From positions 26,047-90,046 of the forward strand of contig JAIFWV010000002.1 in the NCBI GenBank assembly GCA_019659055.1: a stretch of 64,000 nucleotides of DNA, written 5' to 3'. Numbering within the stretch: the first letter of the stretch is position 1; every line of letters begins with the position of its first letter. The notes under the pieces are model-generated. The model worked only from the letters and a program-made list of their open reading frames with translations, was not told the origin of the DNA and did no database searches. The DNA is from Candidatus Doudnabacteria bacterium. Its GTDB lineage: Bacteria; Patescibacteriota; Doudnabacteria; UBA920; O2-02-FULL-48-8. Both the position numbers and the translations under genes were made by a program. This document shows positions 1-35,553 of the stretch, in pieces.

Positions 1-446
1 GCAATAAGTTCTACGTTGTGGATGTTGGATCCAACTGGAATATTTTTGAGCATCATGCGGTTACCCGGCTTGATGTCGGCGCGTTCGGAGGTCATGAGGA
101 TTTCGCCCACTTTGATCCCGTCGGGTGCCAAAATATATCGCTTCTCCCCGTCTTTGTAGGCCAAAAGCGAGATGAAGGCTGATCGTCCTGGATCGTATTC
201 CATAGTTTGGACCTTGGCTGGGATGTTCATCTTGTCGCGCTTGAAATCTACAGAACGAGATTTGAGTCTGTGTCCGCCGCCGCGATGCCGGACTGTGATT
301 TTGCCTTGATTGTTGCGGCCGGCAGTGGTCTTATAAGACTTCAACAAACCGCGAGGGGTAGCCACGCGCTTGGAAAGAACCGAGTAATCGGTGACGGAGT
401 GGATTCTTCGTCCAGGTGAGGTTGGTTTGTAAATCTTGATAGCCAT
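1..446 (-). CDS. rplB: 50S ribosomal protein L2, N-terminal part (gene continues beyond window start)
   Basis: minus-strand translation from ATG(446) reads MAIKIYKPTSPGRR... and later MEYDPGRSAFISLLAYKDGEKRYIL, typical L2; no stop before coordinate 1; follows rplW as in S10 operon. Confidence 0.9.
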   Translation of the reverse strand, partial: MAIKIYKPTSPGRRIHSVTDYSVLSKRVATPRGLLKSYKTTAGRNNQGKITVRHRGGGHRLKSRSVDFKRDKMNIPAKVQTMEYDPGRSAFISLLAYKDGEKRYILAPDGIKVGEILMTSERADIKPGNRMMLKNIPVGSNIHNVELI

Positions 447-448
447 AA

Positions 449-895
449 TTAGATTCCTTCGGCCAGGCCGCTGATCTTCTCGCCGGCCTTAAGGGTAACA
501 TAAGCCTTCTTCCAGTTGCTGGTCTTGCCTGCGATTTTACCTGATCTGCGGGTCTTGCCTTTGATATTCATAATATTTACATCGGCAACATGCACGTCGT
601 AGACTTTTTCGATCGCCTTCTTGACTTCCAACTTATTGGTTGATTTCGAAACGCGGAAGACATAGCGTCCTGAGGCGGACAGTAAATTAGATTTTTCTGA
701 CAAATGATAGTTACGCAAAATGTCGTGGGCGCGGCCGGTGTCCTCTTTCAAAACAACCTGTTTCTTCTCAGAGGCTTCGACTGCAGGCTCTTGGACCATA
801 TCTAAGACATTCTCATCTTTCTGAGTCTTCTTTGAGGCCTTAGGCTTCTTGGCCTCGTCCTCTTTTTTGCCTTTGATGCGGTCTAAAATACTCAT
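449..895 (-). CDS. rplW: 50S ribosomal protein L23 with Lys-rich N-terminal extension
   Basis: C-terminal ~95 aa (YHLSEKS..YVFRVSKSTNKLEVKKAIEKVYDVHV..) match L23; ORF track starts at 943 but the first 48 nt overlap a repeated non-coding intercistronic element, so start at MSILDRI (895) preferred. Confidence 0.8.
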   Translation of the reverse strand: MSILDRIKGKKEDEAKKPKASKKTQKDENVLDMVQEPAVEASEKKQVVLKEDTGRAHDILRNYHLSEKSNLLSASGRYVFRVSKSTNKLEVKKAIEKVYDVHVADVNIMNIKGKTRRSGKIAGKTSNWKKAYVTLKAGEKISGLAEGI

Positions 896-953
896 AAATT
901 CGTGTATCTTGAATCGTGTAGCGTGAGGCGTTTCATGCTTCACGCTTCATGTT
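896..953 (-). repeat. conserved ~60-nt intercistronic element (rplD|rplW)
   Basis: minus strand TAAAACATGAAGCGTGAAGCATGAAACGCCTCACGCTACACGATTCAAGATACACGA.. aligns nearly position-for-position with 9899-9961. Confidence 0.6.
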
Positions 954-1595
954 TTAAGTCTTTAAGTAAGTCTTTTCAATTATATCTAAAGCGTCTTTCA
1001 TGATTATCGAATCGTATTTGAGCAAGTCCAAAATGTTGAGCTGGTTGGCCAAGATCACCTTGGCGTTGGACAGATTGCGTCCGGCGCGTTCGACTTCCCT
1101 GTTTGCAGTCGGGATAACCAATAAAAATTTCTTGCCCAATCCGGCGCGGTCGGCAACTCTGGTGAGCATACCGGACAATTCCTTGGATTTAGCGACGTTT
1201 TCCAATTTATCAACTATGACCAATTTCTTGTCTCGGATTTTATCGGACAAAACGGTAAACAATGCTTTGCGAAAAGCCGAGCGGTTCATCTTGAGCGACC
1301 AATCAACTTCGTTGCGCGGACCAAATGTGATGCCGCCATGGCGCCACAATGGTGAGCGGAAGGAGCCGGCGCGAGCGCGGCCCGTGCCTTTTTGCTTCCA
1401 TGGCTTCTTACCAGTACCTGCGACTTCGCCGCGGGTCTTGGTATGAGCAATAGAACGACGGGCATTGTTTCTCTGGGTGCGCACAGCGGCCCAAACCAGA
1501 TTTGCATCCAATTCTTCCAAACCAAAAATCTTTGGATTCAAATCCAGATCGGAAACTTTTTCGCCAGATTGATTATAAACTGCGGCTTTGTTCAT
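954..1595 (-). CDS. rplD: 50S ribosomal protein L4
   Basis: 213-aa translation with L4 motifs (GTGRARAGS.RSPLWRHGG, KFLLVIP); start ATG overlaps upstream stop (ATGA). Confidence 0.9.
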   Translation of the reverse strand: MNKAAVYNQSGEKVSDLDLNPKIFGLEELDANLVWAAVRTQRNNARRSIAHTKTRGEVAGTGKKPWKQKGTGRARAGSFRSPLWRHGGITFGPRNEVDWSLKMNRSAFRKALFTVLSDKIRDKKLVIVDKLENVAKSKELSGMLTRVADRAGLGKKFLLVIPTANREVERAGRNLSNAKVILANQLNILDLLKYDSIIMKDALDIIEKTYLKT

Positions 1596-2272
1596 AATTT
1601 CTCAAACTGCTTCATTAATTCCGGGTAGTCGGTAAAGATTCCATCGACTCCCAGTTTCCTCATTCGTTCGTACTCGTGCCTATCGTTGACTGTCCAAACC
1701 AAAACTTTTTTTGCCAAAAGTCTCAGGATGAGCATCGTGGCGTAAGAGACATATGTGCTCTGCGGATTTACAGAATAGAGTTTGTCTTTACGAGTCAGAA
1801 AACTAATTATAGTTCGGAGGCTCCATTCGCCTTTGGCGAATATGAGACCCAATTGGACGTTTCCGTCCAAAGTTCTGAACTTCTTCAATACTCCCGGATA
1901 AAACGAGGAGATCAGAACCTTGTGCGGAAAACTTTTTAATTTGGCAAAGACTTGTTCTTCGATGCCATGAACCTTGATCTCGATATTGAGATCGGTATGG
2001 ATCACTGCCAAAACTTCGTCGAGAGTCGGGATTTCGCGGCCGTGTTCGGCGCTGACCCGTTTGATTTCGGACAATACCGTGTCGCGAATCAATCGCGGAT
2101 CACCGAACAATCTCAGCATATCGTGATCGTGGACAACCACGAGTTCGCCGTCTGCCGACTTGCGAACATCGAGTTCCAACATATCGGCACCCATGCTCTC
2201 TGCTTTTTGAAAAGAACGGATTGTGTTCTCCGGTTCGGTACCCGAAGCGCCCCTGTGCGCTATAATCTGCAT
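1592..2272 (-). CDS. glycerophosphodiester phosphodiesterase (GDPD/UgpQ family)
   Basis: 226 aa; N-terminal IAHRGASG..PENT and ELDV..DGELVVVHD motifs typical of GDPD; lies between rplC and rplD with TAAATG and ATGA junctions. Confidence 0.8.
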   Translation of the reverse strand: MQIIAHRGASGTEPENTIRSFQKAESMGADMLELDVRKSADGELVVVHDHDMLRLFGDPRLIRDTVLSEIKRVSAEHGREIPTLDEVLAVIHTDLNIEIKVHGIEEQVFAKLKSFPHKVLISSFYPGVLKKFRTLDGNVQLGLIFAKGEWSLRTIISFLTRKDKLYSVNPQSTYVSYATMLILRLLAKKVLVWTVNDRHEYERMRKLGVDGIFTDYPELMKQFEKL

Positions 2273-2893
2273 TTACTTGATGACTAACTGGACCTTAACT
2301 ATGCCGCCGGGAGCTCCCGGGACTGCCCCTTTGACCGCAATCAGATTCCGCTTGGCGTCGATTTCGATGACTTCCAAGTTTTTCACAGTGCGGACGCCGG
2401 CCATGTGCCCGGCCATGCGCAAACCCTTGCGCACGTGCTGAGGAAACCGGCCGCCGATAGCCCCCACTGCTCGCGGGTGGTCATGGCCATGGGTTGCTGG
2501 TGCGCCGTGGAAACCATGCCGCTTGATAGGTCCGGCAAATCCCCGGCCCTTCATCTCGCCCGTGACTTTGACCATGTCGCCGACTGCAAACATATCGACT
2601 TTGATCTCTTGGCCGCGGCTAAATTTGGAAGCGTCTTCAACTCGGAATTCTATAAGTTTGGCGAAATTGCCCAATTCTTTGGTATGGCCGGCCAGAGATT
2701 TGGTGGCTTTCTTCCGGCGCCCAAAACCGACTTGCACTGCCTGATATTTATCTTTATCCGTAGTCCGGACTTGAGTAATCTTGTTCGGAGCAGCCTTGAG
2801 AATTGTAACAGGAATAACCTTACCATCCTTGGTAAAGATTTGGGACATATGCAATTTTTCAGCGATGATAAACTTGGACATAAGGGTAACCAT
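2273..2893 (-). CDS. rplC: 50S ribosomal protein L3
   Basis: 206 aa; HMSQIFTKDGKVIPVTIL matches L3 N-terminus (GMTQIF...), C-terminal KGKGFAG..HG motif; alternative ATG at 2881. Confidence 0.9.
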   Translation of the reverse strand: MVTLMSKFIIAEKLHMSQIFTKDGKVIPVTILKAAPNKITQVRTTDKDKYQAVQVGFGRRKKATKSLAGHTKELGNFAKLIEFRVEDASKFSRGQEIKVDMFAVGDMVKVTGEMKGRGFAGPIKRHGFHGAPATHGHDHPRAVGAIGGRFPQHVRKGLRMAGHMAGVRTVKNLEVIEIDAKRNLIAVKGAVPGAPGGIVKVQLVIK

Positions 2894-3018
2894 CGCGAGC
2901 GACGTGTTACTAAGAATTTATCTTAGCCGTCGCGTGGCGATCTTTTTTAATAGTTTGCTTCGTCGGTCACAATGCTAACGCTGTGTTTGACCTCCTCGCA
3001 ATGGGCATATTTAAGCTT

Positions 3019-3066
3019 TAAAAAAACCGTTCATGATCCCGAATTATTCAGAAGCCTGAACGGTTC
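3019..3066 (-). terminator. terminator-like hairpin between rpsJ and rplC
   Basis: minus strand: AACCGTTCA...TGAACGGTT 9-bp stem followed by TTTTTTTAAAGC, 50 nt after rpsJ stop. Confidence 0.5.
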
Positions 3067-3118
3067 TTCTAGATTGGCGATTTCCGGGAGGATCTATCCA
3101 ACCTGTATTAAATTGTGG

Positions 3119-3442
3119 TTACATCTTAATTTCAATATCAACCCCAGCAGGGAGATTGAGATTGCTCAGCGCGTCTATGGTTTTGGGTGTTGGGGAGGCA
3201 ATGTCGATTAATCGCTTATGGATGCGCATCTCGAATTGTTCTCGGGCATTTTTGTGCACGAAAGTCGAACGATTGACGGTATATTTGGACTTTTCGGTAG
3301 GCAAAGGGACTGGGCCGATAACCTCAGCACCAGTTCGTTTGGCCGTCTCCACAATCGAGCGGGCAGATTGATCAATAAGCTTATGGTCATAAGCTCTGAT
3401 TTTGATGCGGATTCTAGCTGAATCTATCTTTTCGGCAGGCAT
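3119..3442 (-). CDS. rpsJ: 30S ribosomal protein S10
   Basis: 107 aa; [39 protein letters not shown] is canonical S10. Confidence 0.92.
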
Positions 3443-3498
3443 TGAGATTTTAAAGGATAAGTTATAACGGATGTTTCCCGACTTGGGGCAACTGGTTT

Positions 3499-3527
3499 AA
3501 AATACACTATTTTTGGCAGTTTGTCAA
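3499..3527 (-). promoter_or_regulatory. sigma70-type promoter for rpsJ (TTGACA-17-TATTTT)
   Basis: minus strand reads TTGACAAACTGCCAAAAATAGTGTATTTT about 55 nt upstream of rpsJ ATG. Confidence 0.6.
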
Positions 3528-3558
3528 CTCCGGGGTTTGGGCGGCAAAGACCCAAAGG

Positions 3559-3586
3559 ACTACCCCGAGACCGGGGTAGTCCTAAG
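3559..3586 (-). terminator. rho-independent terminator downstream of tuf
   Basis: minus strand: GGACTACCCCG-GTC-TCGGGGTAGTCC hairpin followed by TTTGGGTCTTT. Confidence 0.7.
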
Positions 3587-3590
3587 TGGC

Positions 3591-4790
3591 TTATTTGGTG
3601 ATTTTGAGTACTACACCGGCACCGACTGTGTGTCCGCCTTCGCGGATAGCAAAGCGCTGTTTTTCTTCCAATGCAACCGGGGAAATCAGCTTAACTTTGA
3701 TAGAAACTGTATCGCCTGGCATGACCATTTCCTGGCCGGCTGGCAATTCAACTTCGCCTGTAACGTCTGTGGTTCGGATGTAGAATTGAGGCTTGTAGCC
3801 CTTGAAGAACGGAGTGTGTCGTCCGCCTTCTTCCTTGTTGAGGACATAGACTTCAGCGTCAAATTCGGTATGAGGAGTAACTGAGCCTGGCTTGCAGAGT
3901 ACTTGTCCGCGCTCGACTTCGTCCTTCTTGGTTCCTCGCAAAAGCACACCCGCATTGTCGCCTGCTCGGCCTTCGTCGAGTTGCTTGTTGAACATTTCGA
4001 TACCAGTGACTACGGTCTTGGCGGTTGGGCGCAAACCCATGATTTCGACTTCATCGGAAACTTTGACAATACCGCGCTCGATACGGCCAGTAACAACTGT
4101 GCCGCGGCCTTCTATGGAGAAGATGTCTTCGATAGCCATAAGGAATGGCTTGTCGATGTCGCGCACTGGTTCTGGGATTTGAGCATCCAAAGTTTCGAGA
4201 AGTTTAACAATGGAATCAACACCGGCCTGGTCGCCCTGAATCGCTTTGAGAGCGCTTCCGCGGACGATGGCAGTAGTTTTGCCGTCGAAACCGTATTTGG
4301 TGAGCAGGTCGCGGACTTCTTCTTCGACGAGGTCGAGAAGTTCCTGGTCTTCCACCATATCTACCTTGTTGAGGAAGACGACGATTGCTGGCACGCCAAC
4401 TTGCTTAGCCAAGAGGATGTGTTCGCGGGTCTGAGGCATTGGGCCGTCGACTGCGTTCACAACCAAAATTGCACCGTCCATCTGGGCGGCACCGGTGATC
4501 ATGTTTTTGACATAATCAGCGTGGCCCGGACAGTCGACGTGTGCGTAGTGTCTGTTTGGGGTTTCGTATTCGACGTGTGAGGTCGAGATGGTCAAGATCT
4601 TAGTTGGATCTCGGCGACCTTGTGATTCTGACGCCTTGGCGACTTCATCGTAAGGGACGAACTTTTTGGTCCAGCCCTTATCGAAGGAGACTTTGGTCAA
4701 AGCGGCAGTGAGAGTGGTTTTGCCGTGGTCGACGTGGCCGATTGTACCCACGTTGACGTGCGGCTTGGAACGTTCAAATTTGTCTGCCAT
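3591..4790 (-). CDS. tuf: elongation factor Tu
   Basis: [22 protein letters not shown] GTPase motifs; start taken at [15 protein letters not shown] (4790) rather than track 4808. Confidence 0.95.
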
Positions 4791-5050
4791 TTGTATAGCC
4801 TTTCGCAATTTTTAAGTGGTATCCAGTCAGTCCCGAGCCTTAACCGAAAGCCCTATCGACCAGGCTTTTAGCCAAGTTCAGGATGACGCCAATCTTAAAA
4901 AACGCTTAAAATTAATTTTAATGCCATAAGATTATAAAGGATTTGTGAGGCTTTGTAAAGGGTCAGAAGCCTTGTGGATAAGTGGCCAAAAACCAGCCAT
5001 TTCAACGGCTCACACCCCGTGTGAGCCGTTGAACCAAACTGCACCTATCA

Positions 5051-5079
5051 TTGACTTAGCAAAGAAATTCTGCTAAAAT
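5051..5079 (+). promoter_or_regulatory. sigma70-type promoter (TTGACT-17-TAAAAT) for gmk-like transcript
   Basis: TTGACTtagcaaagaaattctgcTAAAAT; about 250 nt upstream of the gmk ATG. Confidence 0.55.
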
Positions 5080-5085
5080 GTCTTC

Positions 5086-5328
5086 GATTCCTGATCCGCT
5101 CTCACGGACCGAGGAAGGGGGCTTTCTAACTACCGGGTGAAGCTACGAGACAGGGGGTATCGTAGCCGGATCTGGTTTTGGCACCAATGGTTGGTGTAGT
5201 TGGAAGTCTATAACCCCCTTCATTCTTTTCATGAGAATAAGGGTGTGAATCAGCCGTCTACTTCGATTAGTGACGGTCTTTTTTATGCCAATTTTGGTCC
5301 TCCCGACACTCGGACTACAGGTGCTTAA
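5086..5328 (+). ncRNA. long structured 5' leader ending in terminator-like hairpin (candidate riboswitch/attenuator, class unidentified)
   Basis: nested complementary segments (GGGGGTAT../..ATAACCCCC, ACCAATGG/TTGGT) and CCGTC..GACGG hairpin followed by TCTTTTTTAT at 5254-5290, between promoter and ATG 5329. Confidence 0.3.
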
Positions 5329-5912
5329 ATGCAATTTTTTTGCTATAAATACCTTACGGCAAAAACAAAACATTTGGTCTTTGGATTCGTGGGAGACTCC
5401 GGGTCTGGCAAATCCACTCTCATGATCGAACTTCTCAATTTCTTCCCGCATCTTGAGATAATCAAATCCACTTCCACCAGAGCGCGGCGCGACGACACTG
5501 ACGATTTGTTCTACAAGCTGGTCGGTATGGATTATATGGACAATCCCGAAAACCAGAAGAATTTCCTCAATCACGAAATCTATGCGGGCAATCATTACGT
5601 CTACGAGCGCTCTATCCTCGACCAGGTTCTGCGCTCACATTGCGGCATGTTTGCCATCATCGAATCCGCTGTGCCAAAAATCCAGAAAGCAGGATACGAT
5701 GTACGACTCATCAAAGTCGTCCCAATTGTGACTGGGATTTGGATCGGACTCGAGAGCGCCAGAGCGAAGACCAGCTTCGCGCCACGCAAGGCGGATTGGT
5801 TTTTGATCTCGTTATCGAAAACTCATTTCGGCCCGGCGGATTGGAACAATCAGTCGAGACTGCCGCAAAATTCATTCAGGACCAAATCCACGGGCACCAC
5901 CCCGGGAATTGA
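5329..5912 (+). pseudogene. gmk: guanylate kinase (gmk-like) with apparent +1/-1 frameshift near nt 5725-5745
   Basis: frame 1 gives P-loop GDSGSGKST and STSTRARR (TTRxPR motif); alignment to Gmk continues in another frame (track ORF 5640..5912: LDRTRERQSEDQLRATQGG..FDLVIEN..); frame-1 tail after the shift is low-complexity. Confidence 0.6.
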
Positions 5913-5960
5913 CAGAACCCCCCAGAACAGGTATAAATAGGAATCATTAACGGAGGATTC

Positions 5961-6227
5961 ATGAGTATCTTGGATCGACTCTTTGATTTTTTCCATCGTA
6001 CCGAGGACACCCGGGCCACTCCTGTCTTGGAATACGTGGCTCCTCCCCGCGAAGTCACCAAGTACCATCTGCACGACCACGAGTTCGAGGGTCTGGTCGA
6101 TCACTACTTGGCAGACGAGTACTACATCGACGTGGAGCGGGCGAAGCTCCACCTCAAAGACTGCAAGGAATGCACCGACGTTTTCTGCGGTTTCTGGAAT
6201 CGCATGAGACGGCAGAAGGTCGCCTAA
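5961..6227 (+). CDS. hypothetical small His/Cys-containing protein (88 aa)
   Basis: SD GGAGGA 7 nt before ATG; His-rich HLHDHEFEGLVDH and C-terminal CKECTDVFC; stop overlaps next start (TAATG). Confidence 0.55.
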   Translation: MSILDRLFDFFHRTEDTRATPVLEYVAPPREVTKYHLHDHEFEGLVDHYLADEYYIDVERAKLHLKDCKECTDVFCGFWNRMRRQKVA

Positions 6228-6502
6228 TGTCTCGCTACAGAGGACTAGGACGAGCTCGAACCCGGGCCAACCGGGGCGCGCGCGAGAGCGCAGACATACG
6301 GTTACTAGAGGAAGAATACCTGAGACTCCATCCCGAGATCCGGGGGTTCGAGGACAGAATCTGCTTAATAGCCCCGAACTGCCCTGATTTTGATCGCAGA
6401 CTCCCGTTCAGAATTCCGTACTGCGATCCCCATGTGCGTGAGTGCGAAAAATGCCAGGAAAAAATGGCAGCATCCGGATTCCCATATCCAAAGGAGCGTT
6501 AA
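6227..6502 (+). CDS. hypothetical Cys-rich small protein (91 aa, zinc-ribbon-like)
   Basis: ATG overlaps upstream stop (TAATG); Cys pattern C..NC...C..HVREC..EKC; basic Arg-rich N-terminus. Confidence 0.5.
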   Translation: MSRYRGLGRARTRANRGARESADIRLLEEEYLRLHPEIRGFEDRICLIAPNCPDFDRRLPFRIPYCDPHVRECEKCQEKMAASGFPYPKER

Positions 6503-6741
6503 TGCCAGTCACAAAACTTGCTTCGGCGGTAAACGCGATCACCATCCCAGCCGATGACCTGGTTCAGACGGTCAGTGAGCACGAGAGACTGGGCGAGCGC
6601 ATAATCGCTACAGTCCCAGGAGGACTTCAACTCAAAAGGACCGGAAGCGGGCGCAATAGCGTGATCGAAGTCATCCCGACTTCTTTCACCCTCATTCTCG
6701 GGCAAGAGAGACACCGCGACTACCGAAACGGTGAATCCTAA
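6502..6741 (+). CDS. hypothetical protein (80 aa)
   Basis: perfect AAGGAG 6 nt upstream, TAATG coupling to previous ORF; followed by terminator. Confidence 0.5.
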   Translation: MPVTKLASAVNAITIPADDLVQTVSEHERLGERIIATVPGGLQLKRTGSGRNSVIEVIPTSFTLILGQERHRDYRNGES

Positions 6742-6751
6742 TCGCTATCGC

Positions 6752-6786
6752 GGCGTGGACGTACATACGTCCCGCCGCTTTTTTTA
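6752..6786 (+). terminator. rho-independent terminator
   Basis: GGCGTGGACGT-ACAT-ACGTCCCGCC hairpin then TTTTTTTAT. Confidence 0.65.
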
Positions 6787-6854
6787 TTAATTGCTTGCGC
6801 TCGCTAGCATTATTTTTATTTGTTAAAATATTTTCAAACCCTACGGAGGCCCTA

Positions 6855-7076
6855 ATGGATTTTCAGGAGAAATCCGTCAGCTTTCATCAGTTCACTGCAG
6901 ACGTGGACAAGCTGAGAATTTTGATGATGTGCTATCGGACTTGCGAACAACCCAAAAACACCAACCCTGACACTGACGAGGTCGTAAACGCTTACAATCA
7001 TATGTTTGGGCATGGCGGACGATGCCAAGAATGCTTCCCCTATGCCGTCAAGCTACTCAGTCTCCTGGAAAATTAA
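6855..7076 (+). CDS. hypothetical zinc-ribbon-like small protein (73 aa)
   Basis: SD GGAGG 5 nt before ATG; CYRTC ... CQEC Cys pairs. Confidence 0.5.
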   Translation: MDFQEKSVSFHQFTADVDKLRILMMCYRTCEQPKNTNPDTDEVVNAYNHMFGHGGRCQECFPYAVKLLSLLEN

Positions 7077-7077
7077 A

Positions 7078-7112
7078 AACGGCGCGCCTCCTTTTTTGAA
7101 GGCCGCCGTTTT
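7078..7112. terminator. bidirectional terminator (small ORF on plus strand; fusA on minus strand)
   Basis: AACGGCGCGCC-loop-GGCCGCCGTT hairpin flanked by A-run upstream and TTTCGTTTTCC downstream. Confidence 0.6.
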
Positions 7113-7239
7113 CGTTTTCCAATTATTTATTTAGCGAGGCATTTGTAAAAGCAACCCGCGGAGGACGACGGTCCGAGCGCGTAGGCCGAAATTTTAGCAA
7201 AAATTTACGGCCGGTGCTTTTACAAATATGCCGAGCGCC

Positions 7240-9372
7240 TTATTGTCCGACTTGTCCCACGCGGACTTTGCCAGATTCGCCGATAATTTTCTCGGCCACA
7301 TTTCTTGGCACTTCCTCGTATTTGAGAAACTCCATAGTGTAGGAAGCCTGTCCCTGGGACATGGATCGGATTTGGGTGGCGTAGCCAAACATTTCCGCCA
7401 GCGGGACTTCTGCGTCAATTATTTTGAGGTTGCCGCGATCGGTCATTTCAAGGATTTTGCCGCGCTTGGCGTTGAGGTCGCCGATGACATCGCCCATGGC
7501 TGATTCCGGGGTCGTGACCTCGACTTTCATAATCGGTTCGAGAATGATTGGGTTGGCTTTTTTCACGGCGGACTGGAAAGCCATGGATCCGGCAATTTTG
7601 AAAGCGATTTCAGAAGAGTCAACCTCGTGGTAACTGCCATCGTAGAGCGTGGTTTTGACGTTGAGCACTGGGAATCCGGCAATAACGCCGCGATCCTCTG
7701 CTTCCGCAATACCTTTTTCTATCGGTTTGATATATTCCTTGGGTACGGTGCCGCCAACGATTTCATTTATAAATTCATTGCCTTTCTCTGGATCATCCTG
7801 CGGTTCGATTCGTATCCAGACGTGACCATACTGACCCTTACCGCCGGTCTGGCGGATGTATTTGCCTTCGGCATCAGCTTTACCGCGAATAGTTTCTTTG
7901 TAAGCAACTTGGGGTTTACCAACATTGGCCTCGACTTTGAATTCGCGCTTCATGCGGTCAACCAAAATTTCCAAGTGCAGTTCGCCCATACCCGCAATCA
8001 AAGTTTGCTGGACTTCTTCGTCAGTGCTGACTCGGAAAGTCGGATCCTCTTCTGCGAGTTTTTGCAAAGCCAAACCCATCTTTTCTTGATCGGCTTTGGT
8101 CTTTGGTTCGATAGCAACCGAAATAACCGGTTCTGGGAATTTGATCTTCTCAAGCATTACAGGGAAATCGACATCACAAAGCGTATCGCCAGTGAAGGTA
8201 TCTTTCGGCCCGACCAGGGCCGCGATATCGCCGGAATGAACTTCCTTAACCTCTTCGCGGGAATCGGCATGCAATCGGACCAAGCGGCCAACACGTTCTT
8301 TGTTTCCGGAACGGGCGTTTAGAATATATGAACCGGCTTGAAGGACTCCTGTGTAAACTCGGAAGAACGCCAATTTGCCGACAAAGGGGTCAGTTGCGAT
8401 TTTGAATGCCAAGGCTACAAACTTGTCGCTATCGTTTGGAGTCAGTAAAATTTCTTCTTGAGTCTTGGTATTGATAGCCTTAATCGGGGGCTTATCTAAC
8501 GGTGAGGGCAGGTAGTTCACTACCGCATCCAAGAGCGAAGTCACGATAAGTCCGCGTCCATCTCCGCCGAGGACTGGGAAAAACTTTCCCGACAAGGTCG
8601 AGGTTCGGATAGCTTTTATCAACTCCTGGTCGCTGATTTCCTCGCCGGCCAAATATTTTTCCATGAGAGCATCATCTGATTCGACAACTTTTTCTATGAG
8701 CTTCAACCGGTACTCGCGCGCTTTCTCAAGCATGTCGGCTGGGACTTCGCCTTCGGTAAAGGTCTTGTCCTTGTGCTCCTTGTATGTATAGGATTTCATC
8801 TTCACCAAATCGACAATGCCGTTGATGTCTTTTTCAAACCCAATCGGTAGTTGGATCGGGAAGGCGTTGGGCGACAAGCGCTTGTGAATCGCATCCAAAG
8901 ATTTATAAAAATCGCCGCCAGTCTGGTTGATCTTGTTTATAAAGCACATGCGGGGTACTGCGTATTTGTCGGCTTGGCGCCAGACGGTCTCGGACTGAGG
9001 TTCTACACCCATCTTACCGTCGAAGACCACGACTGCGCCGTCGAGCACGCGTAAAGATCGCTCGACTTCGACTGTGAAGTCCACGTGTCCGGGGGTGTCG
9101 ATGATGTTGATGCGGTGAGTGTCGGGAGATTTACCGCCAGATTGCAGTGTCCGCGACCAAAAGCTGGTGGTGGCCGCCGCGGTAATCGTGATGCCGCGTT
9201 CGCGTTCCTGCTCCATCCAGTCCATGGCAGTGTTGCCTTCGTGGACTTCGCCAATCTTGTGGATCTTGCCGGTATAAAACAAAATCGACTCGGTAGTGGT
9301 GGTCTTACCGGCATCGATGTGGGCAATAATCCCGATGTTTCTGGTTTGTTCTAGGCTGTATTCTCTAGGCAT
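7240..9372 (-). CDS. fusA: elongation factor G
   Basis: 710 aa; [21 protein letters not shown] motifs and full EF-G domain order. Confidence 0.95.
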
Positions 9373-9394
9373 TTAAAAAATTTTCAGTTGTAAA

Positions 9395-9898
9395 TTATCT
9401 TCGCTGGAATCGGGCAAAGTGGGCAAAAGCTTTATTGGCTTCGGCCATGCGGTGCACGTCTTCGCGCTTCTTGATAGCCGCACCCTGCTTGTTGAAGGCT
9501 TCCATAAGTTCGGTGGCCAGTTTTTGGGCCATGGGTTTGCCTTTTTTGCCGCGGGCGGCGTCGATAATCCATTTCATGCCGAGCGCGGTCTTCCGCGGCT
9601 CTTGCACTTCCATAGGCACTTGGTAGTTGGCACCGCCAATACGGCGGCCTTTGACTTCCAGAATCGGACAGACATTGCGTACTGCCTGCTCAAAAATCAT
9701 TTTGCCATCGGTTTTGACCCCGTCCTTGGCTGGCATTTCTTTTTCGATAATATCCAAAGCGCCATAGACGACTTTATTGGCAATAGTTTTCTTGCCGCGT
9801 TCCATGACGTAGTTTATAAACTTCGACAGCTTGACGCTGTTATACTTGTGGTCCGGATCCACCGGATGCTTCTTGTATGATCGTGCTTTTCGTGGCAT
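9395..9898 (-). CDS. rpsG: 30S ribosomal protein S7
   Basis: MPRKARSYKKHPVDPDHKYNS... canonical S7; track N-terminal 15 aa overlap the repeated intercistronic element so start at 9898 preferred. Confidence 0.88.
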   Translation of the reverse strand: MPRKARSYKKHPVDPDHKYNSVKLSKFINYVMERGKKTIANKVVYGALDIIEKEMPAKDGVKTDGKMIFEQAVRNVCPILEVKGRRIGGANYQVPMEVQEPRKTALGMKWIIDAARGKKGKPMAQKLATELMEAFNKQGAAIKKREDVHRMAEANKAFAHFARFQRR

Positions 9899-9961
9899 AT
9901 ATTTGGTCGTGATTCTTGAAACGTGGATCGTGAATCGCTTCACGTCTCACGCTTCACGTTT
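9899..9961 (-). repeat. conserved ~60-nt intercistronic element (rpsL|rpsG)
   Basis: minus strand ATAAAACGTGAAGCGTGAGACGTGAAGCGATTCACGATCCACGTTTCAAGAATCACGA.. Confidence 0.6.
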
Positions 9962-10374
9962 TATGGTCTCTTGGCTCCGTATTTAGATCGGGACCGCTTG
10001 CGGCCTTCGACGCCGCCGGCATCGAGCTTGCCGCGGACTATGTGATAGCGCATACCGGCCAAATCTTTGACGCGGCCGCCGCGAATCATGACCACCGAGT
10101 GCTCCTGTAAGTTGTGGCCGATGCCCGGGATATAGGCGTTGACTTCCATACCATTGCTCAGGCGGACCCGGGCAAATTTGCGGATAGCTGAGTTTGGTTT
10201 TCTCGGAGTCATGGTCGAGACTTTGATGCAGACCCCGCGCTTAAATGGGGATCCTTTGCGGATGGTATAGGTTTCTCCCTTAAGCGAATTGTAAACGCGC
10301 TCAAGTGCCGGAGACTTGGATTTATAAAATGACTTGGTTCGTCCTTTGCGGACTAATTGGTTGATTGTAGGCAT
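9961..10374 (-). CDS. rpsL: 30S ribosomal protein S12 (with a short internal insertion)
   Basis: [12 protein letters not shown]...PKKPNSA(I)[21 protein letters not shown] canonical S12. Confidence 0.92.
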
Positions 10375-10449
10375 GTGCGAAATTAAAACGGCAGATCTTG
10401 CCGTTGCAACTCAAACGGACTTAAATCTATTAAATATTTGTACCTGCAG

Positions 10450-10478
10450 ATAATAACAGGTTTTTTGCCTCCCGTCAA
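10450..10478 (-). promoter_or_regulatory. promoter for rpsL-rpsG-fusA (TTGACG-17-TATTAT)
   Basis: minus strand reads TTGACGggaggcaaaaaacctgtTATTAT about 75 nt upstream of rpsL ATG; 5' UTR then contains AACGGCAAGATCTGCCGTT hairpin plus TTTAATTT immediately before the ATG. Confidence 0.55.
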
Positions 10479-10502
10479 CCCTGTTTCCAATCCTCACTTC
10501 TA

Positions 10503-10531
10503 TTGACAAAATCACCAAAATGTTATATATT
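10503..10531 (+). promoter_or_regulatory. consensus sigma70 promoter (TTGACA-17-TATATT)
   Basis: TTGACAaaatcaccaaaatgttaTATATT, divergent from rpsL promoter. Confidence 0.6.
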
Positions 10532-10571
10532 TGTGAGTCGCAACGGAATTCTTTACAGTGGGAGGCTTAAG

Positions 10572-10793
10572 ATGCCAAAGAAGCAAAAGACCCTTCAGCA
10601 CAGTTTTCAAGTAAGATTCAGCGAAAAAACCATGGCGCAAATCATGGAACTCCAGGAGCATTACGGGGCGATTACAATCGCTGAAACAATCCGCCGTGCA
10701 GTCGAAGAACGTCACAAAGTAATGGAAAAGCAAACAAAAGGATTCTCAGTGTTCGGAAAGAGGGACTCCGAAACAATTGAATTCCTTCTCTAA
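10572..10793 (+). CDS. ribbon-helix-helix (CopG/Arc-like) DNA-binding protein, 73 aa
   Basis: SD GGGAGG; sequence ..FQVRFSEKTMAQIMELQEHYGAITIAETIRRAVEE.. fits the RHH beta-alpha-alpha pattern. Confidence 0.55.
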   Translation: MPKKQKTLQHSFQVRFSEKTMAQIMELQEHYGAITIAETIRRAVEERHKVMEKQTKGFSVFGKRDSETIEFLL

Positions 10794-11277: not shown

Positions 11278-11913
11278 ATGTCGTACATTGCAAACGTGTT
11301 CGGTGACCTGGACGATCAGAACAAGTACACCGACGACCTGTTGGCACAACTGCTTGCGCAACTCTTCGAGAAGCCGGCGGCGTGTGTCGATCAGGACGAC
11401 CGCTGCTCTTCCAAGCCCTTGAGCGACTCCGACACGAGCATCACGCTCGATTGCGGCAAGATCGTCAAGCGCTGCAGCTACCACACGAAGGTGTTGTCGG
11501 TGCTCGAGACGGAAGTCCGCACCGTCTTCGCGGGTGTCGCTGTCAAAGCCATCCGCGAAGTCCAGAACGCGCGGGCGGCTGAGAAGGCCCGGATCGCGGC
11601 CGAGAAGAAGCTCTTCCGCGACGAGATCCGCAAGCACCTGGCGCGCAGCGTCGGTGTCACGGTGGAAATCGTAACCGAGGAGGACGTGACCGCGAAGATC
11701 GCGGCGATGACCGAGGACCAGAAGTACAAGCTCCTCGACATCGTGCTCAAGCGCGACCAGCCGGCGAAACCCGTCGTCAATGCGACGACGAAGCCCGGCC
11801 AGAAAAACCAGAAGCCCGCGAGCCCGCGGCCGACCCTGGTTCACACCAATCGACCCATGGGTGACGTCGCGCACCCCGGCGATCTCCGCCTCACTCAGGC
11901 CGCGAATCGCTAA
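11278..11913 (+). CDS. hypothetical protein (211 aa), G+C-rich
   Basis: SD AAGGAGG 7 nt before ATG (track ORF starts earlier at 11173); Ala/Lys-rich helical central region; flanked by promoter and terminators. Confidence 0.55.
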   Translation: MSYIANVFGDLDDQNKYTDDLLAQLLAQLFEKPAACVDQDDRCSSKPLSDSDTSITLDCGKIVKRCSYHTKVLSVLETEVRTVFAGVAVKAIREVQNARAAEKARIAAEKKLFRDEIRKHLARSVGVTVEIVTEEDVTAKIAAMTEDQKYKLLDIVLKRDQPAKPVVNATTKPGQKNQKPASPRPTLVHTNRPMGDVAHPGDLRLTQAANR

Positions 11914-11990
11914 CCGCAACCCACCGTCAGGGCAAATGACGAGGTGGCGAAGGTACCAGTTACCTTCGCCATTTTTTTATTCCAAAAAGA

Positions 11991-12027
11991 AAAGGGCGGG
12001 TAGTTTTAGAACTACCTCGCCCTATTT
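11991..12027. terminator. bidirectional terminator
   Basis: GGGCGGGTAGTT-TTAG-AACTACCTCGCCC hairpin with T-runs on both sides; also GGCGAAGGTA..TACCTTCGCC hairpin at 11945-11978. Confidence 0.6.
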
Positions 12028-12357
12028 TTAATGCCGATTGAGTCGGTCGCGGCGGTCTGCTCGAAACTGTTCGAGCTTGTCGTGCAGTTCGCGCCGGCTT
12101 TCGGGGTCCGGAACACTTCCAGCCAAGAGCAGATCAATAGTCTGGAGCAAACCGTCAATCTGACTCCGGCGTACGACGTCTTTGAGGGCTGTCGAACTCC
12201 CCTCTTTGAGGCCAATCAGCAAATCGCGAAAGTCTTCGAACAACTCCTTCACCGAATCAATGGCTTCGCCGCGCTCCAAAACTTTGGCACAGCGATAAGC
12301 CGCTCGCTTTTGGAGGTAAAGCTGGCGCTTAAGCTCCACAATCTGTTCATTGACCAT
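12028..12357 (-). CDS. hypothetical helical protein (109 aa)
   Basis: SD AAGGAGGTGAG directly before ATG; no recognisable family. Confidence 0.5.
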   Translation of the reverse strand: MVNEQIVELKRQLYLQKRAAYRCAKVLERGEAIDSVKELFEDFRDLLIGLKEGSSTALKDVVRRSQIDGLLQTIDLLLAGSVPDPESRRELHDKLEQFRADRRDRLNRH

Positions 12358-12383: not shown

Positions 12384-13019
12384 TTAGAGCTGAAAATCTG
12401 TTCCCAACAAAAATTTAACACATGCAGAGACGAGTGGCAAGAGGATAGACGAAAAAAGTCCGGTGAACAGGAATAAAAAAATCAAAATAAACCCAAAGCG
12501 CTCAAGTTCCAGGATCCAGTACATAAGACCGCGGTCCACAAACCCGAGCGCACTGGCCAAAACTTTGGATCCGTCCAAAGGCGGGATCGGTATGAGGTTA
12601 AAAATTCCCAAAATGAGGTTGAGGAGGATGATTTGAAATACCAGTGCTTGCCCTTGTTCGGAGATTCCGGGGAAAAACCGAAACACCAGGCTTGCCGCTC
12701 CGGCCAAAAGGAAATTAGTAGCCGGTCCGGCCAACGCCACGAGTATCATGTCGCGCCGGAAATTCCTAAGGTTCTGGTAATTTACAGGCACGGGCTTGGC
12801 CGCGCCAAATATAAACGGCGAACCGACCAGATACAAGATTGCAGGCAGGAGAATCGACCCAAACGGATCGATATGCGGGATCGGGTTGAGAGTGAGACGG
12901 CCCGAATACCTTGCCGTAGGATCACCGAGCCAATCGGCAACTAACCCGTGCGCCACTTCGTGGAAAATCACGGAAAACAGCAGGATGAAGATAAAAAATA
13001 TGACGCTAAATGGATCCAT
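12384..13019 (-). CDS. site-2 protease family (peptidase M50) membrane metalloprotease
   Basis: HEVAH zinc motif in first TM region, NLIPIPPLDG motif, multiple TM segments. Confidence 0.8.
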   Translation of the reverse strand: MDPFSVIFFIFILLFSVIFHEVAHGLVADWLGDPTARYSGRLTLNPIPHIDPFGSILLPAILYLVGSPFIFGAAKPVPVNYQNLRNFRRDMILVALAGPATNFLLAGAASLVFRFFPGISEQGQALVFQIILLNLILGIFNLIPIPPLDGSKVLASALGFVDRGLMYWILELERFGFILIFLFLFTGLFSSILLPLVSACVKFLLGTDFQL

Positions 13020-13110
13020 GGGATAGAATTATGAATTTCGAATTATGAATTATGCTTATATTACATAGCCATAATTCCTGATTCCAGATTCCTAATTCGG
13101 ACCCAAGGCA

Positions 13111-34237: not shown

Positions 34238-35242
34238 TTAAGTGTACTGCTCTAAGACGTCATTTACAAATACAGAAACTCCAGACGCGATTGGGACCGC
34301 AATCAGGGCGCCGACAATTCCTCCCAGCGTGCCTCCGACAAGAATCGCCAGGATAATCATGACGGGATTTAGTCCGACACTCTTGCTCATGATGATCGGT
34401 ACCAAAACGTGGCCTTCCAATTCCTGCACGACTATAAAAAATATAACCGCGGCTAGAGCCAACCCTGGGCTTTGCAAAAATGCAAAAAATGCAGTGATGC
34501 CGCCGGCGATAAACGGACCAATATACGGGATGATCTCAAGCACACCGGCAATAAGCGCCAGGACCAGAGCGTAATCAACTTTGAGTATAGTCAAGCCTAC
34601 ATAGACGACGCCAAAGACTACAACTGACAAAATCAGCTGACCCAAAAGCCAGTAGCCCATCTTGCGCTGAATTTTGGTGACGAGGTTCATGACGTAAGCC
34701 TGGTGTTTGTAGGGCGAGAGATGCCGGATGAAATTTTTCATACCGTTCTCTTCCGCGGTCAGGTAGAACGAAATGACTAATACTGTAATAAACGAGACTA
34801 CGCCGGTGGCGACACCTTTGGTGGTTTGGAAAATATTCCCCGCAAGGCCCGATCGGAAGTGCTCAACTGTATTCGTAACACTCTTATCGATCCCGAAACG
34901 CGCCAGAGCATCTTTGTAGGGGCCAATTTTTTCTTGGAAATGAGACACGAAATTGTTTGACTGCAAGGATTGGAATTGATCAATCATAGTCGGGACCAGG
35001 AGGAATCCGACCAAAGCGATGAGACCCAGGAAAAGCACATAAACCAAAAGTACGCTTATCCCCCGCGGAATGCGGTATTTGCGGAAAAAATCTGCGACCG
35101 GGTCCATGGCAGCCGAAACTATGATGGCAATGACGAACAGCAGGACGATTTCCCGGATGGCAAATAAAAACCACACCAAAAGCGCGATAAACAGGATTTT
35201 GAGTATGGTAATCGAAGAGATATTTATAGTGTTGTGATCCAT
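34238..35242 (-). CDS. AI-2E family transporter (PerM/YhhT-like permease)
   Basis: 334 aa, 8 TM segments with the AI-2E layout and conserved C-terminal GxxAxxP-rich region. Confidence 0.7.
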   Translation of the reverse strand: MDHNTINISSITILKILFIALLVWFLFAIREIVLLFVIAIIVSAAMDPVADFFRKYRIPRGISVLLVYVLFLGLIALVGFLLVPTMIDQFQSLQSNNFVSHFQEKIGPYKDALARFGIDKSVTNTVEHFRSGLAGNIFQTTKGVATGVVSFITVLVISFYLTAEENGMKNFIRHLSPYKHQAYVMNLVTKIQRKMGYWLLGQLILSVVVFGVVYVGLTILKVDYALVLALIAGVLEIIPYIGPFIAGGITAFFAFLQSPGLALAAVIFFIVVQELEGHVLVPIIMSKSVGLNPVMIILAILVGGTLGGIVGALIAVPIASGVSVFVNDVLEQYT

Positions 35243-35553
35243 AGCTAAATTCTAAAGAATTGCTAGCGAATAAGCAATAGCTTAGAAGCTGGGAAGCTGG
35301 AATCTAGAATCTAGGAATAAACCAGGCTGCGGCCTGGTTTTGGTTTTCCCGACACTCGGAAAAATTTTGTCGGAATTTCAATCGAGCATATGTCCCATTG
35401 CGAGGAGTCCCGCCTACCACAAAAAAATTAATAGCCGGGGTGGGACGACGCGGCAATCTTTTTTAAGAGAGCTCGCCACGCGGCCTACTAGATTTAAGCT
35501 TAAGCAAACGGCCGCTCGCGATGGACAGATATATTCAGGATGACGGCGCATGG

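Follow-up and report, generated by a model that had tools for sequence, protein, structure and literature searches.

A heptamer-array hairpin in two ribosomal-protein gene spacers of Candidatus Doudnabacteria, probably copies of a quickly turning-over repeat of the STRR/REP kind

Two intercistronic spacers in the ribosomal-protein (r-protein) operons of a Candidatus Doudnabacteria genome, one between rplD and rplW and the other between rpsL and rpsG, are probably two copies of a short palindromic repeat made of 7-nt units, similar to the short tandemly repeated repetitive (STRR) and the repetitive extragenic palindromic (REP) elements, that turns over fast and is tolerated between stop and start codons. 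The spacers lie in a stretch of 64,000 nucleotides of contig JAIFWV010000002.1 (hereafter the window, in whose numbering the coordinates are given unless a relative is named), and the element that fills them belongs, as the local representative, to a class of heptamer-array hairpins found widely in Patescibacteria (the Candidate Phyla Radiation, CPR), a class that resembles both the cyanobacterial STRR and REP-type elements. Apart from one insert of opposite-strand genes, the genes between positions 1 and 10400 all lie on the minus strand and follow one another as rpsL (9961-10374), rpsG, fusA, the insert, tuf, rpsJ, rplC, a glycerophosphodiester phosphodiesterase gene, rplD (954-1595), rplW and rplB.

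Copy 1 (896..953, minus strand) takes up the whole spacer between the rplD stop codon (954-956, minus strand) and rplW. Read along the transcript, it consists of a 5' arm of three direct heptamers, CATGAAG, CGTGAAG and CATGAAA (931..951), of a 3' arm of four heptamers of the inverted type, CGCCTCA, CGCTACA, CGATTCA and AGATACA (903..930), which enters the pairing GCGUGAAGC/GCCUCACGC in the predicted fold, and of a tail, CGAATTT (896-902), directly followed by ATG. Copy 2 (9899..9960, minus strand) takes up in the same way the whole spacer after the rpsL stop codon (9961-9963, minus strand), with a 5' arm of CGTGAAG, CGTGAGA and CGTGAAG (9938..9958), a 3' arm of CGATTCA, CGATCCA, CGTTTCA and AGAATCA (9910..9937) and an unpaired tail, CGACCAAATAT (9899-9909), ahead of ATG; on its 3' side the series continues after AGAATCA with a fifth heptamer, CGACCAA. 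Both copies are thus built 7-nt periodically of three CGTGAAG-like units and then four to five inverted, nnTTCACG-like units, and both are matched by R1, a covariance model made from three homologous copies (these two and one from a relative, L084), at 895-956 with 60.2 bits and at 9902-9963 with 59.4 bits.

A sequence-only reading of the window had described the two spacers as alike almost position for position, and this is borne out: from the stop codon TAA through ...CACGA the copies align without internal gaps at 78% identity (46/59), and their local alignment score is 33; segments drawn at random from the window, 3000 in all, averaged 6.7 and did not exceed 13, so that the likeness is real and not a matter of chance. 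The repeated half-sites able to form hairpins, which the same reading had pointed out, are present as well and are better described as heptamers, since the autocorrelation at lag 7 is 0.62 in copy 1 and 0.59 in copy 2 (z ~6, reached by none of 2000 shuffles) and stays at or below 0.31 at every other lag. A coding repeat was considered and rejected, because a period of 7 is not a multiple of 3 and the homologous proteins start downstream.

In the sense RNA the predicted hairpins have energies of -14.9 kcal/mol (z -3.0) for copy 1 and -21.4 kcal/mol (z -4.5) for copy 2, and their stems, of 15-17 bp with mismatches, begin a few nt past the stop codon. In copy 2 the stem CGUGAA-GCGA-UUCACG is enclosed in the longer pairing UGAAGCGUG/CACGUUUCA and is followed by 18 unpaired nt before the AUG. 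Neither an internal promoter nor a sense-strand terminator was predicted inside either element.

Mechanical open reading frame (ORF) calls extend L23 (449..943) and S7 (9395..9943) across the elements, in both cases from GTG, as the sequence-only reading had seen, and the gene starts that it corrected on this ground agree with those of the homologs. For rpsG the start is the ATG at 9896..9898 (minus strand): the N-terminus is MPRK in all 30 S7 homologs inspected, and the NCBI S7 from the source contig, of 167 aa, is 100% identical. For rplW it is the ATG at 893..895 (minus strand), in accordance with the L23 ortholog of the relative L081, which begins MSILDRIKGKK one base past the L4 stop, and with five relatives in which this spacer holds no element. 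The short starts of S7 and L23 are therefore, to judge from these homologs, the correct ones, and the GTG codons at 9941-9943 and 941-943 were rejected as artefacts of ORF calling. No GGAGG-like motif was found ahead of the AUG of either rpsG or rplW when the sequence was read for it. The S7 proteins of Doudnabacteria (homologs P0002-P0117) range from 161 to 183 aa; their internal low-complexity loop after about residue 55 varies and their termini do not, so that extended S7 calls, tried as a proxy for additional copies of the element, were discarded once the length differences had been traced to this loop. The N-terminus of L23 (449-895) is extended by about 50 aa rich in Lys, as it is in the relatives, and the start annotated by the depositor agrees with neither candidate, since the deposited L23 product differs from the one of 148 aa as well as from that of 164 aa.

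The gene junctions were compared in 10 distinct Doudnabacteria whose S7 is 80-86% identical and whose genes stand in the order of the window. To judge from this comparison, heptamer-array elements are gained, lost and replaced quickly and are not tied to a particular gene. Between rpsL and rpsG the CGTGAAG family is present in one relative of the ten, L084, where it has one extra heptamer; three others have hairpins of like design made of unrelated units (TTTCTAG in L166, CTAATT in L172, TACTAAT/TTACGAA in L177), two (L081 and L174) have a different, conserved cassette, and in L085, L170, L175 and L176 the spacer is reduced to 1-4 nt. Between rplD and rplW none of the five relatives covering the junction has an element, the spacers there being of 1-13 nt, and the copy of the window at this junction is probably secondary because no relative has the spacer. 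Being missing in close relatives, the element is dispensable. The whole element is one palindrome, and a comparison of the empty sites (TAATATG, TAATTTATG) with the occupied ones gave no clear target-site duplication of the kind that flanks the terminal inverted repeats of miniature inverted-repeat transposable elements (MITEs).

Moreover, the distribution of the CGTGAAG family is incongruent with the phylogeny. By the identity of S12, S7 and EF-G taken together, the window is closest to L081 (92.7% at the amino acid level) and L172 (90.4%), both of which are without the family, and the nearest to L084 is L166 (92.1%), where another heptamer family is present. An S7-based scan of metagenomes added few close relatives (among the matches listed, the best had 68% identity), and in a scan of genomes the closest species representatives were 60% identical. 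Searched against the window and 695 kb of Patescibacteria loci (about 760 kb in total), the R1 model gave no more members.

The rpsL-rpsG intercistronic region of Escherichia coli holds the translational operator of S7, and the sequence-only reading had proposed for the two junctions a common structured RNA, serving either as a feedback operator or as a processing site. In the operator form S7, and L23 or L4, would regulate their own synthesis by translational feedback through a mimic of their rRNA site, and copy 2 does share with the E. coli operator both the junction and a structured RNA upstream of rpsG, copies 1 and 2 alike standing just upstream of r-protein start codons. Unlike the E. 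coli operator, however, the element shows neither conservation nor covariation nor gene specificity: conservation at the two junctions, named beforehand in that reading as decisive, is absent, with one relative of ten and none of five having the element, and close relatives have no spacer at all. RNAalifold, applied to the three copies, gave one common inner stem, CGUGAnnC/GnnUCACG, and no covariation (the covariation term was unfavourable, +1.44), and Rfam had no family for either element, whether at gathering thresholds over the whole window or at E<=1 over 1-10600; a sub-threshold match to a Caenorhabditis elegans snoRNA on the opposite strand, with 33 bits for a cut-off of 65, was taken as spurious. 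Furthermore, the same CGTGAAG family precedes two unrelated r-protein genes, rpsG and rplW, the heptamer class also precedes a non-ribosomal gene for an M50-peptidase, and the hairpin leaves the start region unpaired instead of sequestering it. The element is thus not an S7- or L23-specific feedback operator, and autoregulation through rRNA mimicry must be regarded as extremely unlikely.

The further copies that the sequence-only reading had suggested searching for turned up in part only: an alignment scan and the covariance model gave no third CGTGAAG-family copy in the 64-kb window, whereas arrays of like design were found at many other junctions and before non-ribosomal genes. In 2.14 Mb of loci there are 86 stretches periodic at lag 7, as compared with 7-12 for lags 5, 8, 10 and 11; after merging, 65 of 77 are non-coding, and nearly all belong to Patescibacteria loci, with the addition of one cyanobacterium. 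Where Proteobacteria and other phyla have a long rpsL|rpsG spacer, no 7-nt periodicity was found in it. In a Candidatus Yanofskybacteria locus (L018, 9400-20400), heptamer arrays stand at about ten sites of the str and S10 operons (the S12 leader, S12|S7, S7|fusA, the tuf leader, L3|L4, L23|L2, L2|S19, S19|L22, L22|S3 and the spacer after S3); most of them have an inverted arm, seven count as hairpins by the energy criterion, and the units differ from junction to junction, some of them (CCTAAAA, CTAGAAA, TTTCTAA, GTTGTAA) recurring. In L166 the TTTCTAG family occurs at S12|S7, S7|fusA and L23|L2. In these sequences, then, one family sits at different junctions within a genome, and families are patchily common to distant lineages: the elements of L002 and L177 align with a local score of 47 (shuffle maximum, 18), and the S7 proteins of the two are only 60% identical. 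Searches of the full-text literature retrieved no description of heptamer hairpins in Patescibacteria.

The window holds, together with the two CGTGAAG-family copies, two other heptamer arrays. One of them (13016..13108, minus strand) is a hairpin of another family, with GAATTAG.../AATTCAT... units, and is the longest inverted repeat in the window; it ends 3 nt ahead of the ATG of an M50-peptidase-like gene (12384..13019), matches positions 7694-7765 of L081 and is missing in 5 other relatives. The other, found in the lag-7 scan, is a weaker periodic stretch, TTCCTAG ATTCTAG ATTCCAG CTTCCCAG CTTCTAAG (35268..35317, minus strand), in the 5' region of the gene at 34238..35242. Outside r-protein operons the class is represented by the hairpin at 13016-13108 and by instances in L081 and L172. 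A heptamer hairpin between tuf and rpsJ of a Taylorbacteria locus (L024, 15932-16025) has a 3' arm, CGCTACA CGCTACA CGCTACA CGATATG, that resembles the 3' arm of copy 1 (CACGCTACACGAT); its match to R1 is weak (E=0.13), and it could be due to convergence or be a distant member of the family.

The closest known analogue is the heptamer hairpin that cyanobacterial STRR form between co-transcribed genes. STRR are usually 7-bp tandem repeats that can form hairpins between such genes, for example hupS-hupL; no function is known for them, but it has been suggested that they stabilise transcripts or couple translation (PMC2670836). The elements of the window share with them the 7-nt tandem unit, the non-coding location, including that between co-transcribed genes, and the potential to form a hairpin. 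STRR are also highly repetitive, with many copies dispersed over a genome; the 64 kb of the window contain two copies of the CGTGAAG unit array and two other heptamer arrays. STRR are, however, elements of (heterocystous) cyanobacteria, and those of Candidatus Doudnabacteria are not members of the cyanobacterial families; moreover, the arrays of Patescibacteria are short, with 3-5 units per arm, have units that are highly diverse even within one operon and, at most of the operon junctions examined, combine an inverted array with the direct one. REP elements and the bacterial interspersed mosaic elements (BIME) are short imperfect palindromes of extragenic spacers, present in multiple copies, variable between relatives and thought to stabilise the upstream mRNA. 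The elements of the window resemble them in that they, too, are short and imperfectly palindromic and separate genes that run in one direction. A heptamer substructure is lacking in REPs, which come in tens to hundreds of copies and are associated with a RAYT transposase (IS200/IS605-like).

Among the long simple repeats of prokaryotes, heptamers are the most frequent, and polymerase slippage has been given as the cause (Mrazek, 2007, as summarised in PMC4679880). A second comparison is offered by the TAACTGA direct repeats of Beggiatoaceae, cyanobacteria and Bacteroidetes, which stand a few nt upstream of Shine-Dalgarno-less start codons, partly at internal junctions of r-protein operons (fusA, L3, S4), have a patchy phylogenetic distribution and have been proposed to be bound by single-strand RNA binders, such as a cold-shock-domain protein or ribosomal protein S1 (MacGregor, 2015; PMC4679880). 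These consist of one fixed unit, almost always direct and in one orientation, with neither inverted arm nor hairpin, in contrast to the CGTGAAG unit with its inverted arm and to the class at large, whose units vary and whose orientation is random. The TIGR arrays associated with Patescibacteria, long arrays of ~36-nt dual-spacer units with box C/D motifs beside a Nop-domain Tas gene (PMC12045711), were excluded, as the units here are of 7 nt and form a single hairpin of ~45 nt flanked by r-protein genes.

If the two spacers are repeats of this kind, the arrays would arise and change length through replication slippage of heptamers and would spread to other short spacers by duplication or gene conversion. 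Once transcribed into the polycistronic mRNA, the insert would fold into a stem-loop starting about 4-7 nt past the stop codon, and an A/U-rich tail of about 18-21 nt would stay unpaired ahead of the Shine-Dalgarno-less start codon, so that translation of the downstream cistron would not be blocked; it would be because the insert folds away in this manner that the elements persist. Most likely they are tolerated, and possibly they are mildly useful as intercistronic stem-loops, in which case the most plausible generic effect, by analogy with what has been proposed for STRR and REP hairpins, would be to shield the upstream cistron from 3' exonucleases or to provide a processing site.

Several points weigh against this reading. 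The CGTGAAG family has only two copies in 64 kb, both of them in r-protein operons, and no enzyme that would mobilise it, no duplication of a target site and no mechanism of transposition was identified. In addition, third codon positions are 0.40-0.44 identical between all the genomes compared, which is to say that silent sites are saturated, and the elements exceed this level, with 68-76% identity between the window and L084 and 89% for the M50-gene hairpin between the window and L081, the latter value suggesting constraint or recent transfer. Identity above that of saturated silent sites implies constraint on the element once established or transfer between lineages, and a purely neutral or selfish reading is therefore incomplete.

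The heptamer hairpins might instead be under selection as a class, as intercistronic RNA elements required in the r-protein operons of Patescibacteria and free to change in sequence as long as the hairpin persists, with possible roles as RNase III-type processing sites, as stabilisers that segment the mRNA or as stop-start proximity devices for re-initiation at Shine-Dalgarno-less cistrons. The recurrence of hairpins with different sequences at like types of junction in distant lineages, their usual end about 10-20 nt ahead of the AUG, the conservation of some instances far above the saturated silent-site level, the lack of a GGAGG-like motif ahead of either AUG and the proposal of the same roles for STRR hairpins all favour this. 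What makes it rather unlikely is that four close relatives are without the rpsL|rpsG spacer and five without the rplD|rplW element, that there is no excess of G-U pairing on the sense strand and no covariation in the three homologous copies, and that the predicted stems are short for a classical RNase III site, which takes about two helical turns of double-stranded RNA. The processing hairpins of phage T7 and E. coli are similarly stem-loops between a stop and the next start in highly expressed polycistronic mRNAs, but they are longer, the elements of the window are dispensable in relatives, and the likeness holds only if the role is at the RNA level. Over the class as a whole there is no folding advantage of the sense strand (the antisense strand folds better in 16 of 24 members; Wilcoxon p=0.09), and the start-proximal arm shows no consistent skew or orientation bias (11:12 and 9:14 for the G-C or A-T skew); taken together, these two results argue against a strand-specific role.

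An elaboration of the same idea, which we think unlikely, is that of an undescribed, Patescibacteria-wide intercistronic class that has spread horizontally and been co-opted as the punctuation of Shine-Dalgarno-less r-protein operons, read by a factor in a 7-nt register or by RNase III. The horizontal spread is suggested by the presence of the same family at rpsL|rpsG in lineages with S7 only 60% identical. If it were true, the hairpins would set cistron-specific mRNA stability and re-initiation, and the copies of the window would be functional and not passengers.

The strict 7-nt phasing could also reflect a trans-acting factor that reads the 7-nt units and co-regulates rpsG and rplW, either a single-strand RNA binder (a cold-shock-domain protein or ribosomal protein S1) or a DNA-binding regulator of CGTGAA/TTCACG palindromes. 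The conservation of elements between genomes above silent-site identity would fit such a factor, and heptamer direct repeats beside start codons inside r-protein operons provide a precedent (PMC4679880). Close relatives, however, have different units, and so do, in L018, the junctions of a single operon, which would call for many co-evolving factors; the start-proximal arm has no consistent composition or orientation, and the element is missing in most relatives, all of which leaves this explanation very unlikely.

On the opposite strand, each copy reads as a hairpin followed by GTTTTA and could act as a terminator that stops antisense RNA polymerase entering the operon. Copy 1 on the + strand (920-946 plus TCATGTTTTA, with a 12-bp stem) is the top terminator-like site in the scan and resembles a weak terminator, and it folds better in antisense, at -27.4 vs -14.9 kcal/mol, as do 16 of the 24 class members. 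The run has only four Ts, though, the L084 homolog lacks a T-run, the strand bias is not significant (p=0.09) and no antisense promoter was identified nearby; antisense termination is accordingly a highly improbable account of the element.

For annotation, the consequence is that the S7 and L23 starts can be set right and that long spacers in the ribosomal operons of Patescibacteria are probably repeat insertions and not conserved leaders. The element itself is most likely an STRR/REP-like repeat in a new phylum. These reduced genomes tolerate or use diverse, fast-evolving hairpins of 7-nt periodicity at the junctions of their most highly expressed operons. Should the hairpins be functional, they would give a handle on translation and mRNA stability in uncultured organisms largely without Shine-Dalgarno sites at these genes; should they be selfish, they would add an instance of repeats spreading through genomes of very small size. 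The pattern of the class over the ribosomal operons of Patescibacteria is a more interesting lead than the single finding in the window.

Structured elements of other kinds were also observed in the spacers of these operons. In the rpsJ|rplC spacer (2894-3118, minus strand; core about 2990-3110) there is a structured element that all 7 Doudnabacteria genomes compared have kept, with a GAUUGG...CCAAUC hairpin, then a long terminator-like stem (AACCGUUCAGG...CUGAACGGUU) and a U-run, compensatory changes in six pairs and no Rfam match; it has the look of an attenuator within the S10 operon and may respond to an r-protein. Elements of a second kind, conserved between genomes, stand at S12|S7, at S7|fusA and at L22|S3 (L081, 9925-10003; L174, 1170-1257 and 1815-1911; L166, 12370-12470) and consist of GAGGAGUAA, a hairpin with 8 compensatory pairs and AAUUACGACGA directly before the AUG. 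Their stem may bring a Shine-Dalgarno-like GAGGAG near the start codon, for which the split ribosome-binding sites of phage T4 genes 25 and 38 offer a comparison. Furthermore, a hairpin with a T-run (AACGGCAAGATCTGCCGTT TTAATTT; 10387-10405, minus strand) lies downstream of the predicted rpsL promoter (10478-10450) and ahead of the rpsL start, and it may be a leader attenuator.

As regards the neighbouring genes, the glycerophosphodiester phosphodiesterase gene (1592-2272) abuts rplC and overlaps the rplD start by 4 nt, and its insertion between rplC and rplD is kept in every Doudnabacteria relative examined. The gap between fusA and tuf, of about 2.4 kb (4800-7240), contains opposite-strand genes, including a guanylate-kinase-like P-loop ORF (5329-5940), and the content of this insert differs among relatives. 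Between rpsL and the M50 gene, a GC-rich patch (11400-12200; 0.57-0.64, with about 0.41-0.53 around it) lies amid small + strand ORFs in a block that is missing from the corresponding place in relatives, and this patch may be foreign DNA.

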